From: a virus
Taxonomy: Duplodnaviria > Heunggongvirae > Uroviricota > Caudoviricetes
IMG/VR virus record: IMGVR_UViG_2778261349_000007
Span: 1-6,020 of that record
DNA: 6,020 bases
Direction: 5' to 3' (one strand)
Shown here: positions 1,614-5,705 of the stretch, piece after piece
Numbering within the stretch: the stretch's first letter is position 1
How the letters are laid out: every line of letters begins with the position of its first letter
Position numbers and translations under genes: made by a program
Notes under the pieces: model-generated
The model's database searches: none
Told to the model about the DNA's origin: nothing
The model's input: only the letters and a program-made list of their open reading frames with translations

Positions 1614-1864
1614 TGAACAGAAAAACCAGAGATAAGACAGCGCCAAAATATAAAGCGTTAGACATGACAGAGCACGCTTTAAAGGTGGCAATCAGAACGA
1701 TAGACCGCCACGCGGGGGAAGGATACGCGAAAGAACATCCCGACCTGATAAGCGCATTCATGACCACAGCAGCGGCAAACTTTGCCACGCTGACAGAACG
1801 TGAGATTGCCGAAGCGGAACAGGTAACAACCATCAACGTTAAAACCGGAGAGGTGGAATCATGA
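1613..1864 (+). CDS. Hypothetical small protein (83 aa from ATG 1613; the ORF track starts at GTG 1583)
   Basis: ORF in frame from MNRKTRDK...; stop TGA 1862-1864 overlaps the ATG of the next gene (ATGA overlap at 1861-1864), suggesting translational coupling with ssb. Start overlaps the last iterons. No recognisable motifs. Confidence 0.5.
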   Translation: MNRKTRDKTAPKYKALDMTEHALKVAIRTIDRHAGEGYAKEHPDLISAFMTTAAANFATLTEREIAEAEQVTTINVKTGEVES

Positions 1865-2283
1865 CAGCACAGATAGCCGCTTACGGGCGGCTGGTGGACG
1901 ACCCGCAGGTAAAACAGACCAGCAAGGGCACACCGATGACGCTGGTTCGTATGGCGGTATCGCTGCCATGCAGCCAGGCACAGGACGGACAGGCGACGTT
2001 ATGGCTGTCCGTCATCGCATTTGGCAAGCAGGCCGACTTCCTGGCTAAACATCAAAAAGGCGACGTTGCCAGCGTATCCGGCACGATGCAGGTAAGCCAG
2101 TGGACAGGCCAGAACGGCGAAACGCGGCAGGGCTGGCAGGTTATCGCAGACAGCGTAATCAGTGCGAGAACGGCGCGACCGGGCGGCAAAAAAGGCCAGC
2201 AGGGGCAGGCTACTGACGCACTGAACAGGGCAAAACAACAGGCGGGTAACGATGATCCGTACGGGGATAACATACCGTTTTAA
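1861..2283 (+). CDS. ssb: Single-stranded DNA-binding protein (SSB-like OB-fold), 140 aa
   Basis: Translation aligns by eye to the E. coli SSB OB-fold (GRLVDDPQV..., WLSVIAFGKQADFLAKHQKGDVASVSGTMQVSQWTGQNGETRQ...) followed by a Gly/Gln-rich linker and an acidic C-terminal tip ...NDDPYGDNIPF resembling the canonical DDDIPF tail. Followed by a rho-independent terminator. Confidence 0.8.
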   Translation: MTAQIAAYGRLVDDPQVKQTSKGTPMTLVRMAVSLPCSQAQDGQATLWLSVIAFGKQADFLAKHQKGDVASVSGTMQVSQWTGQNGETRQGWQVIADSVISARTARPGGKKGQQGQATDALNRAKQQAGNDDPYGDNIPF

Positions 2284-2298
2284 GCAACGAGTGACAGA

Positions 2299-2321
2299 AG
2301 CCGGAGCAATCCGGCTTTTTT
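2299..2321 (+). terminator. Rho-independent terminator after ssb
   Basis: Stem agccgga (2299-2305), loop gcaa, stem tccggct (2310-2316), then a T run 2316-2321. Confidence 0.7.
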
Positions 2322-2370
2322 ACGGGTCCTCCTGGCGGGGTGGGCCTGAACACGGGGCGGAGGGGCGCGG
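2322..2370 (+). repeat. Degenerate cos-like repeat (cosQ-like acgggtcct retained, cosN core altered)
   Basis: acgggtcctcctggcggggtgggcctgaacacggggcggaggggcgcgg parallels the 4764-4812 cos copy (acgggtcctttccggcatatggacccgttacggggcggcgacctcgcgg), but the 12-nt GGGCGGCGACCT core is replaced by GGGCGGAGGGGCG. The preceding terminator hairpin is also near-identical to the one at 4741-4763. Confidence 0.5.
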
Positions 2371-2502
2371 AAAAAAGCGCATTTTTGTGGTTTTATCGTC
2401 ATCATCATCATGAGCGTAATTTATTGTTTTTAATTGTTTTGATGCAAAAAAGATGATGATTGTGGTTAATTTTCGTTCGACATCTTTGCAGGCAGATAAA
2501 AA

Positions 2503-4321: not shown

Positions 4322-4735
4322 ATGGCTACGAATGAAAGCATCATGGCGCTACCGCTGGCGAGTAAATTTAAAGCAGAAGCGCGGGCAATGGCTGACAGAG
4401 GTTTATCAACCTACGAGGCCGTATATCAACTCAACAGACTGGAAGAGCAGGACAAACCGCGCGCTGATGCGATTATGGCACTTGATGAATCTGGCGACTA
4501 TCAGCCGCTGCTACGTGCAATGGCAAACGTGCCTTGTATCGATGTTGGTACGGCTAAAAGCATCCTTAGCATGACCATAGAGCAGGAACGCCAGAAGGTT
4601 GCACCAGAGCTTACCGCAGCCTTTGAAAACTTTATGGACATGCACAGCCCGCAAGCCGTATCAGCAGGCATGGCATACGATGGCAGAAACCCGGGCGATG
4701 ACGGCGACATCGATCGCATACTGAAAACCATCTGA
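4322..4735 (+). CDS. Hypothetical protein (137 aa), last gene of the capsid operon; possible packaging/assembly accessory
   Basis: Good RBS (GGGGGA about 4312-4317). Ends 5 bp before a strong terminator. No motif recognised; no convincing by-eye match to lambda FI, FII or W. Confidence 0.65.
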   Translation: MATNESIMALPLASKFKAEARAMADRGLSTYEAVYQLNRLEEQDKPRADAIMALDESGDYQPLLRAMANVPCIDVGTAKSILSMTIEQERQKVAPELTAAFENFMDMHSPQAVSAGMAYDGRNPGDDGDIDRILKTI

Positions 4736-4740
4736 GACAG

Positions 4741-4763
4741 GCCGGAGAAATCCGGCTTTTTTT
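4741..4763 (+). terminator. Rho-independent terminator after the capsid operon
   Basis: Stem gccgga (4741-4746), loop gaaa, stem tccggc (4751-4756), T7 run 4757-4763. Near-identical to the terminator at 2299-2321. Confidence 0.7.
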
Positions 4764-4830
4764 ACGGGTCCTTTCCGGCATATGGACCCGTTACGGGGCG
4801 GCGACCTCGCGGTTTTTCGCTATTTATGAG
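4764..4830 (+). other. Lambda-type cos site, + orientation: cosQ-like (acgggtcctttccgg), cosN 12-nt core GGGCGGCGACCT (4796-4807), and the start of cosB
   Basis: gttacg-GGGCGGCGACCT-cgcggtttttcgctatttatga matches the remembered lambda cohesive-end region (GTTACG / GGGCGGCGACCT / CGCGGGTTTTCGCTATTTATGA), and ACGGGTCCTTTCCGG matches the lambda right-end cosQ region. Downstream (4831-4940) it diverges from lambda cosB, with no CCGTTCTTCTTC R3-like motif and a GGGTGGTGGTGGTGG run instead. It lies upstream of a Nu1-like gene, as in lambda. Confidence 0.75.
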
Positions 4831-4940
4831 CTTTTTCAGGGTGGTGGTGGTGGTTTTGTTGTTTGCTCTATCTTTATGAATAAAAAGGGAAAGATGCAAG
4901 CAATACACCAACCTGAAGCAGTAATTAAGTTGGTGTATTA

Positions 4941-5483
4941 ATGAAATCGCACCTGATGAACAAAAAAAACATGGCTAAAAGCTGCCGTGTAAGTGCGACA
5001 GCGTTCGACAAGTGGGGAGTAACTCCCGTTGAGCGTAAAGGCCGTGAGGCGTTTTATGATGTTGCCAGCGTGATAGACAATAGGGTTAACAATGCAATTA
5101 GCCAGCTTACAAACGGCAAAGGTGAGATTGATGATGATGAACTTTTACGAGTCAGGATCAGATTACTGACAGCACAGGCAGAGGCGCAGGAACTTAAAAA
5201 CGAGCGCGATCGCGGTGACGTGATTGATACAGAGTTTTGCATGTACGCGCTTTCAAAACTGGCGAGTCAGATTTCATCAATCATGGACAGCCTCCCGCTT
5301 ACTATGCAAAGGAACTTCCCACAGATTACCCCCGCCATGCTGGATAGGCTTAAAAGGGAAGTGGTTAAAGCCTGTAATGCCAGCGCAAAAGCTGCCGACA
5401 ACCTCCCGCAGATACTGGTTGCTTACCTGAATGAAACTACCGGAAACGTGCCGAAGAAGTTGCTACAGAAGAAAGGCGAGTAA
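4941..5483 (+). CDS. Terminase small subunit, lambda Nu1-like, 180 aa (start alternatively at ATG 4956)
   Basis: C-terminal two thirds align closely to remembered lambda Nu1 (LLTAQAEAQELKNERDRGDVIDTEFCMYALSKLASQISSIMDSLPLTMQRNFPQI vs LTRAQADAQELKNARDSAEVVETAFCTFVLSRIAGEIASILDGLPLSVQRRFPEL). The N-terminal DNA-binding region is more diverged (MNKKNMAKSCRVSATAFDKW... vs MEVNKKQLADIFGASIRTIQNW...). No clear SD upstream of either candidate start. Confidence 0.85.
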   Translation: MKSHLMNKKNMAKSCRVSATAFDKWGVTPVERKGREAFYDVASVIDNRVNNAISQLTNGKGEIDDDELLRVRIRLLTAQAEAQELKNERDRGDVIDTEFCMYALSKLASQISSIMDSLPLTMQRNFPQITPAMLDRLKREVVKACNASAKAADNLPQILVAYLNETTGNVPKKLLQKKGE

Positions 5484-5584: not shown

Positions 5585-5705
5585 TGTTAAACAATCTGTT
5601 ATAGAGAAGAAGAACGGATCTGACTTTTGCCAGAAAATTTTCATAAACAGATAAAATCCGCGAGGTCGCCGCCCCGTAACGGGCCATAATTCCAGGAAGG
5701 ACCCG
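5585..5705 (-). other. Second, complete lambda-like cos site in inverted orientation (cosQ-like, cosN, lambda-like cosB motifs on the minus strand)
   Basis: The minus strand reads cgggtccttcctggaattatggcccgttacg-GGGCGGCGACCT-cgcggattttatctgtTTATGAAAATTTTCtggcaaaagtcagatCCGTTCTTCTTCtct. cosN core is at 5663-5674 (forward aggtcgccgccc). TTTATGAAAATTTTC (forward 5633-5647) and CCGTTCTTCTTC (forward 5606-5617) match the remembered lambda cosB left-end sequence, including the R3-like element. It is convergent with the 4764-4830 cos, and the two flank the Nu1-like gene. Confidence 0.75.

Follow-up and report, generated by a model that had tools for sequence, protein, structure and literature searches.

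Why does a satellite that has two lambda-type cos sites carry a third cos-like site after ssb, and is that site a damaged copy of the other two or a packaging signal of another kind? An earlier note on this DNA took the site to be a degenerate copy, produced by duplication of a terminator-cosQ module and altered in its cosN core, at the boundary between the replication and morphogenesis modules. Here, we compare the site with the other cos sites of the element, with phages, and with related satellites.

The satellite and its cos sites

The window, i.e., the entire 6,020-bp stretch of DNA analyzed, represents the right two-thirds of an integrated satellite of about 11 kb that is found in the roxA/phoQ interval of E. 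coli chromosomes. The top genome match is 98.3% identical over the full length, and at least 80% of the window is covered in 389 of 5,426 complete genomes. The window starts with a RepA-type helicase, an iteron origin (iterons at 1408-1603), SSB, and a 68-aa protein, continues with a lambda-E-family capsid protein, a lambda-D-family decoration protein, and a 137-aa protein, and ends with a Nu1-family small terminase (TerS) and a 93-aa protein. The late operon starts at 2701. The full element has int, an alpA-type regulator, pri/rep with an iteron origin, a length of about 11 kb, a capsid homologue, cos sites, and a specific att site. By these sequence features, we identify the satellite as a PICI of the EcCICFT073 family. 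EcCICFT073 shares both the attachment site and the late-gene layout (68-aa protein, MCP, decoration protein, 137-aa protein, cos, Rpp or TerS, inverted cos, 93-aa protein) but encodes the 144-aa RppA at the locus occupied in the window by the 180-aa TerS. The latter is 36% identical to the TerS of a CFT073 prophage and unrelated to the TerS of VT1-Sakai.

The features relevant to the third site (copy A) and its two counterparts (copies B and C) are as follows.

1861-2283, plus strand: ssb, which closes the replication module and precedes copy A (Pfam SSB, E=7e-17; the best genome match carries the annotation single-stranded DNA-binding protein)
2296-2321, plus strand: hairpin 1, intrinsic-terminator-like and separate from the cos cassette (stem-loop 2296-2319, T-run 2316-2321)
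2322-2496, plus strand: copy A cos cassette (cosQ-cosN-cosB), 175 bp, flanked by two hairpins; a clean gap in the CFT073 alignment and a match to VT1-Sakai/Stx2 phages
2324-2330, plus strand: cosQ-like heptamer GGGTCCT, invariant across copies A to C, the 29 unique phage copies, and 13 unique slot-B PICI copies
2331-2351, plus strand: cosQ-cosN spacer of the VT1 type, 21 nt, near-identical in VT1-Sakai, CP-1639, and Stx2_112808
2352-2370, plus strand: cosN-like site ACGGGGCGGAGGGGCGCGG, 19 nt (left half-site, variable center, right flank)
2371-2488, plus strand: cosB-like segment, 82-84% identical to VT1-Sakai/Stx2_112808
2500-2538, both strands: hairpin 2, terminator-like in either direction (-22 kcal/mol on the plus and -23.5 kcal/mol on the minus strand), the right border of the cassette
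4766-4860, plus strand: copy B, lambda-type cosQ and cosN (GGGCGGCGACCT) with a PICI-specific cosB that includes (GGT)4; corresponds to EcCICFT073 cos1
4941-5483, plus strand: PICI-encoded Nu1-family small terminase, paired with copy B rather than copy A (Pfam Phage_Nu1, E=2e-23)
5609-5704, minus strand: copy C, inverted lambda-type cos in the same position as in CFT073; corresponds to EcCICFT073 cos2

The lambda-type cos sites of E. coli PICIs work through Rpp and, in the window PICI, through TerS. EcCICFT073 has two lambda-like cos sites that are both functional: cos1, which is essential, Rpp dependent, and equipped with a PICI-specific cosB, and cos2 as a second site (PMC6092414; PMC6739421). 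The window resembles EcCICFT073 in having more than one cos per element, and both cos1 and cos2 have the lambda cosN that is also present in copies B and C. As published for cos1, the likeness of copy B to phages is confined to cosQ-cosN, the first 81 to 82 of 186 nt. Copies B and C form an inverted repeat (I1) of 76 nt with 80% complementarity. Copy A differs from cos1 and cos2 in its location after ssb, in the right half of its cosN, and in a cosB that is of a phage type rather than PICI specific.

Relation of copy A to copies B and C

The description of copy A as a third cos-like site is borne out by the pattern GGGTCCT-N18-23-ACGGGGCGG, which has three matches in the window (at 2324, at 4766, and, on the minus strand, at 5704) and none in 200 dinucleotide-preserving shuffles. 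Hence, the likeness between the copies is not confined to the preceding hairpin. As in lambda, where GGGTCCT lies about 20 nt upstream of ACG^GGGCGG and is followed by the binding region of the small terminase subunit, the cosQ heptamer of copy A precedes ACGGGGCGG by 21 nt in the same orientation, and a putative binding region follows. The cosN-like site consists of the invariant left half-site ACGGGGCGG (2352-2360), the variable center AGGGG (2361-2365), and CGCGG (2366-2370), an invariant right flank; the nick position in lambda predicts a top-strand nick between 2354 and 2355. The cosB-like segment harbors two blocks in inverted orientation, TCATCATCATCAT (2399-2411) and AGATGATGATTGTGG (2451-2465), that are the same in phages.

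Also as noted earlier, the core is altered. Copy B and the reverse complement of copy C read ACGGGGCGGCGACCTCGCGG (20 nt) and contain the cohesive-end sequence of lambda, phi80, and 21, GGGCGGCGACCT, whereas copy A reads GGGCGGAGGGGC, with AGGGG in place of CGACCT, and is 1 nt shorter, bringing CGCGG 1 nt closer. Apart from this center, copy A is further distinguished from lambda by an unrelated cosB. The reported near-identity of hairpin and cosQ at copies A and B was confirmed: the hairpins (2292-2321 versus 4733-4762) are 87% identical over 30 nt and the cosQ-like motif TACGGGTCCT does not differ. An alignment of the two copies did not support the proposed relationship, however. Hairpin, cosQ, ACGGGGCGG, and CGCGG are common to both, but the remainder is at chance identity, both in the cosQ-cosN spacer (45.5%, against 42.6 +/- 6.2 for shuffled sequence) and in the 128 nt downstream of CGCGG (49.6%, against 51.4 +/- 2.1). 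Above-chance likeness outside the constrained motifs, as expected of a recent internal duplicate, was not observed between copies A and B.

The hairpin itself is a separate entity. Hairpin 1 has a 10-bp stem, a GCAA loop, and six T residues and is a predicted terminator by folding (-15.4 kcal/mol, z -4.9); the hairpin before copy B folds similarly (-14.6 kcal/mol, z about -4.9) and is likewise followed by a T-run. A consensus terminator scanner did not report the hairpin at 2296-2321; a likely reason is that some of the T-run is paired in the predicted stem. In EcCICFT073, hairpin AGCCGGAGCAATCCGGCTTTTTT follows perC with a second, bidirectional hairpin 6 nt further on and no cos in between, so that the prototype lacks the cassette and the window has 175 additional bases (2322-2496) between the two common hairpins. 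The presence of the same hairpin without a cos indicates that it is independent of cos. In other contexts, i.e., in phages and in the other PICI slot, cosQ is preceded by a different hairpin or a T-run. Taken together, these arrangements are at odds with the duplicated terminator-cosQ module that had been proposed.

The phage counterpart of copy A

When window positions 2285 to 2420 were used as a blastn query against phage genomes, about 92% identity (approximately 100 nt) to VT1-Sakai and a set of Stx2-converting phages was found from about position 2317 onward, with mEp213, mEp043, and mEp460 at 75 to 81%. The entire block of approximately 175 bp (2322-2496) is about 92% identical to the VT1-Sakai/Stx2 phages over some 170 bp, with 93.6% over cosQ-cosN and 82 to 84% over cosB, and the homology to VT1-Sakai takes in a (CAT)4 block and, in inverted orientation, a ATGATGAT block before ending near 2488. 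In VT1-Sakai, Stx2_112808, and related Stx-converting phages, cosQ, spacer, both cosN flanks, and both cosB blocks match those of copy A at identical spacing. In VT1-Sakai, CP-1639, Stx2_112808, and 606R10, the matching DNA is flanked by Rz on one side and by the small and large terminase genes on the other, and the homologous site in mEp460, mEp213, and 606R10 is located 100 to 190 bp upstream of terS, which is followed by a GpA-type terL. The phage sites related to copy A thus lie just upstream of terS-terL, as in lambda. In contrast, copy A has ssb on its left and a terminator and the capsid operon on its right, with no DUF1441 terS nearby, a location away from terS-terL that is expected for a satellite copy.

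With respect to DNA ends, the mEp460 and mEp213 records are opened at the start codon of terS. For mEp460_4F5, a record derived from virions, the last bases are ...GGGTCCTCCCGGTGGGGTGGCCTG and the first are CCACGGGGCGGG, which places its termini 5 nt from the nick that the analogy to lambda predicts. A metagenome locus (L088) that starts 6 nt from the predicted nick was not counted as end evidence because it is a stored fragment of a longer contig and because assembly breaks are expected at shared repeats. The 16-kb vB_EcoS-606R10 was considered as a packaged satellite but rejected, as it is a partial phage genome.

The TerS proteins of the VT1-Sakai/Stx2-type phages belong to the DUF1441 family and are unrelated to Nu1, the family of the lambda protein, while their TerL is GpA-like with 23% identity to the lambda-type TerL of the CFT073 prophage. 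Together with the phage match, these distant terminases lead us to assign copy A, by sequence, to the cos sites of the VT1-Sakai/Stx2 type, i.e., of a different terminase family. The assignment argues against a degenerate copy derived from B or C by duplication. In our view, copy A is a complete and, to judge from its motifs, structurally intact cos site rather than a decayed lambda cos.

Between lambda and phage 21, packaging specificity swaps as a unit that comprises cosB and the N-terminal domain of TerS. VT1-Sakai and CP-1639 resemble this pair (for the lambda/21 comparison, see also PMC9026076) in that cosB and the TerS N terminus differ while cosQ, cosN, and the TerS C terminus are common. 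More specifically, VT1-Sakai and Stx2_112808 share cosB and have TerS proteins that are 97% identical, whereas CP-1639 has a different cosB and a TerS in which the N-terminal approximately 65 aa diverge and the C-terminal two-thirds are identical to VT1-Sakai. Such covariation is the signature expected of a true specificity pair. The PICI modules break at the same cosN/cosB junction, but the PICI possesses only the DNA half of the pair.

Variation of the core center

To place the altered core in context, a census was made of 82 (CAT)4-type sites in IMG/VR plus genome copies, dereplicated; the IMG/VR pattern demanded an exact (CAT)4 block, so the conservation of that block there is by construction.

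Phage, 29 unique alleles: intact cosQ in 29/29, left half-site in 28/29, CGCGG in 29/29; centers GCGG 11, GTCGG 8, GCGGG 4, ACGG 4, others 2
PICI slot B, 13 unique alleles: intact cosQ in 13/13, left half-site in 13/13, CGCGG in 13/13; centers GCGG 9, GCGGG 2, GTCGG 2
PICI slot A, 14 unique alleles: intact cosQ in 11/14, left half-site in 13/14, CGCGG in 14/14; centers GAGG 10, AGGGG 2, GAAG 1, GTCGG 1

The center of the core varies in both sequence and length among the phage sites (GCGG, GCGGG, GTCGG, or ACGG, compared with AGGGG in the window PICI). Since polymorphism of the cohesive-end center is normal in phage copies, the altered core of copy A is not a sign of decay, as had been suggested. 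Slot-B copies have core alleles in common with phages, but the slot-A alleles AGGGG and GAGG were not found among the 29 unique phage copies, and all 18 IMG/VR contigs with the exact window core allele are PICIs. Mutated cosQ motifs were present in 3 of the 14 unique slot-A alleles and in none of the 42 phage and slot-B alleles (Fisher p=0.013, for alleles that are not phylogenetically independent); in CP-1639-type slot-A sites, found in ClpP/MCP-type PICIs, cosQ often reads AGGTACT.

Among nine aligned cassettes, the mean pairwise difference was 0 to 0.06 for cosQ, the CGCGG flank, the next 26 nt, and both cosB blocks, compared with 0.34 for the core center and 0.22 to 0.25 for the spacers, and there were no indels between CGCGG and the first cosB block. 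Conservation of the cassette does not exceed that of neighboring intergenic DNA, but the PICI copies are 96 to 100% identical, so this flank comparison does not separate function from hitchhiking.

Distribution and module boundary

The cassette was detected at 210 places in 194 E. coli genomes, with at least 80% of its length in 181 of them, and the ssb-hairpin-cassette-hairpin arrangement is present in about 160. Identity to the window is mostly 95 to 99% and reaches at least 99% to the window allele in only 8 genomes. Resident prophages with a copy A-type cosB rarely co-occur with the cassette across these 210 places. Like EcCICFT073, the ETEC1734 PICI is without the cassette, which is otherwise combined with varied replication and late modules, as exemplified by three elements.

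ATCC 25922 PICI: primase; lambda-E module with TerS; cassette 97% identical to the window
Strain 142 PICI: RepA helicase; lambda-E module with an Rpp-sized gene; GAGG core allele as in ATCC 25922
KY176 cf-PICI: RepA helicase; HK97-type capsid genes, HNH, P27-family TerS, and TerL; cassette 89% identical to the window

The left half-site of KY176 is intact by anchor-based parsing (MAFFT had mis-registered this row). Given that KY176 encodes its own P27-family TerS and TerL and has another candidate site, G-rich and flanked by hnh and terS, the cassette is probably heterologous in this element too.

At the position of copy A, sister PICIs have complete phage-type cos sites of other kinds. In PICIs with a ClpP-protease/capsid fusion, the same ssb and hairpin are followed by a site that does not differ from copy A in cosQ, spacer, and core (GGGCGGAGGGGC) but has another cosB (CACCATCACCACCAC); over its whole length, including cosB, this site is 93.5% identical to phages 1720a-02 and CP-1639. 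Downstream of the capsid gene, these PICIs have a second cos in direct orientation, in which cosB is of the (CAT)4 type and the core is phage-identical. In still other PICIs, the post-ssb slot contains an mEp460-type site. Loci L007-L010 were considered as cf-PICIs that use the post-ssb site with a terminase of their own, but they carry only a ClpP/MCP fusion gene and no portal or terminase, and this idea was rejected.

The claim that the site marks the boundary between the replication and morphogenesis modules gained strong support from a comparison of two PICI types. Integrase, regulator, and SSB have the same protein accessions in the window-type PICI and in its ClpP/MCP-type counterpart from strain JNE082640, and the DNA of the two elements is 99.0% identical over 2.8 kb, ending about 75 nt past the start of ACGGGGCGG. 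There are no mismatches in the 400 nt to the left of ACGGGGCGG, and divergence sets in from about +35 nt. In view of this homology break just to the right of cosN, the sequences provide good support for copy A as a true module junction, with the break at the cosN/cosB junction.

Possible functions of copy A

On balance, we lean toward the view that copy A is an accessory, helper-type cos for VT1-type helpers that would offer the PICI a second route into phage particles. Homology, architecture, phage genomic position, distribution, and module-junction status are observed, whereas cleavage and packaging at copy A are inferred and might proceed as follows. Upon induction of a VT1-type helper, its TerS would bind the (CAT)4/ATGATGAT blocks and its TerL would nick at ACG^GGGCGG, after which PICI concatemers would be packaged rightward from copy A, ending at the next copy A. 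As EcCICFT073 is reportedly packaged as phage-sized DNA (PMC6092414), a head might hold about four 11-kb units. This route would be independent of the PICI TerS or Rpp and of the lambda-type sites, and neither route would cut the sites of the other, owing to the differences in cosB and in the right half of cosN. The window copy has all of its motifs in intact form, the pattern of conserved motifs and divergent spacers looks functional, and the cassette accompanies either type of replication gene (primase or RepA helicase) and either TerS or a gene of Rpp size, and also occurs in a true cf-PICI. Against an accessory cos stand the private core alleles of slot A, the eroded cosQ in 3 of 14 alleles, the rarity of co-resident prophages with this cosB, and the efficient transfer of EcCICFT073, which does not have the cassette (PMC6092414).

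These same observations may be read differently. Possibly, although we consider it the less probable account, copy A is a hitchhiking relic, a VT1-type cos by descent that is no longer used in a lambda-type PICI. An int-to-ssb-to-cosN module of a ClpP/MCP-type PICI might have recombined with a lambda-E-type late module, and the remnant, being small, neutral, and enclosed by two terminators, might simply have persisted. A homology break between two PICI types that falls inside the site, core alleles not seen in phages, cosQ erosion with AGGTACT widespread in slot A of ClpP/MCP-type PICIs, the absence of the cassette from EcCICFT073 and ETEC1734, and the scarcity of co-resident prophages would all fit such a history. 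On the other hand, a relic would not be expected to retain all motifs in the window copy and a functional-looking contrast between motifs and spacers, nor to be kept at 95 to 100% identity in about 160 to 180 genomes with varied replication and late modules, including a cf-PICI at 89%. A role in transcription, as part of a terminator or insulator or as a late-operon leader with an incidental likeness to cos, seems improbable. The cassette is indeed flanked by hairpins of terminator type and precedes a palindrome-rich, conserved region and the 68-aa/MCP operon, but the hairpins and regulatory region are the same in EcCICFT073, where the cassette is missing, and the phage homologues of the cassette occupy the cos position; no promoter-like site was found in 2200-2760. 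We are equally skeptical of a decoy that, by binding the VT1-type terminase or being cut by it, would titrate the enzyme or misdirect packaging and inhibit the phage without productive PICI packaging. The cassette contains the phage's own cosB blocks, and PICIs do interfere with helper packaging (PMC6739421). Yet a complete cosQ-cosN-cosB would also bring packaging, and one copy per 11 kb makes a weak sink. To our knowledge, there is no example of interference that acts through DNA alone. The least plausible explanation is a lambda-type cos that decayed after internal duplication of the terminator-plus-cos module. It accounts for the similar hairpins and the common cosQ, ACGGGGCGG, and CGCGG but is contradicted by chance identity to copies B and C in the spacer and downstream DNA, by the much closer match to the cos of another phage family in both cosQ-cosN and cosB, by the EcCICFT073 hairpin that lacks a cos, and by core variation in working phage sites.

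An accessory helper-type cos would have precedents. It is already known that E. coli PICIs can have several cos sites and that the satellites P4, SaPIbov5, and 11capE copy the helper cos. For the HE-PICI 11capE, a 258-bp cos region is common to satellite and helper (PMC10111431). These satellites carry the full packaging signal of the helper and need no redirecting protein, the same strategy as we propose for copy A, but the window PICI is unlike them in that its helper-type cos resides beside a separate, TerS/Rpp-dependent lambda-type system. In the papers that we consulted, we found no description of a single PICI with cos signals of two terminase families, of a regular post-ssb cos slot with different phage-type cassettes, or of a hypervariable cosN center. 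If copy A works, many islands, including those of the reference strain ATCC 25922 and about 160 sequenced genomes, would hold packaging signals for two unrelated terminase systems. Their helper range would be widened to Stx-converting lambdoid phages, which bears on the spread of virulence-associated islands in STEC-rich settings, and copy A would be a simple example of a helper range set by a swappable 175-bp DNA cassette.

More speculatively, and with little confidence on our part, cos sites might be the physical joints at which satellites and helpers swap modules, with PICIs collecting orthogonal cos cassettes as interchangeable determinants of helper range. Ends cut at different cos alleles would anneal and then be repaired, which could generate both cosN/cosB breakpoints and the hypervariability, in sequence and length, of the cohesive-end center. 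Conceivably, the private core alleles of satellites could then serve as end-identity tags against joining to helper DNA. A cosN center that is naturally hypervariable should also help to learn what GpA-type terminases read.

Two cos sites in the ClpP/MCP PICIs

The PICIs that carry a ClpP-protease/capsid fusion gene have two direct cos sites with unlike cosB types, the CP-1639-type cos following ssb and the VT1/Stx2-type cos following the capsid gene. The positions of both sites in two compared loci are as follows.

L012, 15827-15923 and 13289-13385: cos sites of a ClpP-protease/capsid-fusion PICI
L019, 70 and 2608: cos sites of a ClpP-protease/capsid-fusion PICI

At the CP-1639-type post-ssb sites of these PICIs, cosQ mostly reads AGGTACT, not GGGTCCT, while the remainder of the site is retained; AGGTACT was found in the L054-type contigs, in L008, and in at least 12 of the 18 loci among L020 to L037. 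Its presence in most of these sites suggests that, in the ClpP/MCP PICIs, selection on the post-ssb slot is weaker than on the second cos site. Contig L026 of IMG/VR appears to have arisen by recombination between the two sites, with deletion of the capsid gene.

Variation in the presumed cohesive end was assessed by comparing the cosN centre of the window (2361-2365) with the homologous sites of the IMG/VR loci and of L003, L017, L018, and L038 to L040. Its right half is hypervariable in both sequence and length, with 3 to 6 nt separating ACGGGGCGG from CGCGG. This is seen even between cassettes that are 97 to 98% identical elsewhere, and phages vary too. Candidate explanations are slippage in the G-runs, repair of mismatched cohesive ends, and an absence of terminase contacts.

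The TerS locus and its flanking cos sites

In the window, the TerS gene is bracketed by two intact lambda-type cos sites in opposite orientations, which form an inverted repeat of 76 nt with 80% complementarity.

4766-4860, plus strand: intact lambda-type cos (copy B), equivalent of EcCICFT073 cos1
5609-5704, minus strand: intact lambda-type cos (copy C), equivalent of EcCICFT073 cos2

Published work has reported that transfer rises when EcCICFT073 cos2 is deleted. The gene between the two sites (4941-5483) encodes a full-length Nu1-family TerS of 180 aa, at the locus occupied by the 144-aa RppA in EcCICFT073 (L006, 13660-14094). The cosB beside this locus is also unlike, being GGTGGTGGTGGTGG in the window versus CACCACCACCAC in CFT073 cos1, and these represent one repeat in opposite orientations. 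Strain 142 has the Rpp-type version of the locus together with copy A, the VT1/Stx2-type cassette after ssb.

PICIs flanked by phage genes and candidate ends

In several IMG/VR contigs (L021, L024, L025, L031, L033, and L035), VT1-type phage genes flank the PICI. Where the flanks are visible, the upstream side carries Rz and TerS and the downstream side part of TerL, with both sides present only in L025. This arrangement suggests that these PICIs are located in the terminase region of a prophage, consistent with the published helper-embedded PICIs, which integrate in late genes such as A:Terminase_1 (PMC10111431).

The true cf-PICI of KY176 (L041, 7990-8100, minus strand) contains a G-rich stretch, GACGGGGTGGGGGGCG..., between the hnh-adjacent ORF and a P27-family terS. 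This stretch is a candidate HK97-style cos belonging to the element itself, distinct from the copy-A-class cassette of KY176. The metagenomic PICI fragment L088 (IMG/VR), when oriented, starts with AACACGGGGCGGGAGG, 6 nt off the position where a copy-A-class site is predicted to be nicked; this start may be a true DNA end, a point where assembly broke off in a repeat, or a cut made when the fragment was stored.

Other elements of the window

Two further elements were found.

2642-2673: perfect palindrome with 15-nt arms, AATCATAACTGGATG aa CATCCAGTTATGATT, with TTTTT after it
1408-1603: iteron AAAAGTGGGGAG, present six times and grouped in two clusters about an AT-rich stretch, directly after the helicase gene

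The palindrome, which is also kept in EcCICFT073, lies just 5' of the ribosome-binding site of the 68-aa gene, where it may control the late operon as an operator or a terminator. The iteron clusters are likely the replication origin. A seventh, similar iteron copy is located within the TerS gene (5004-5022).
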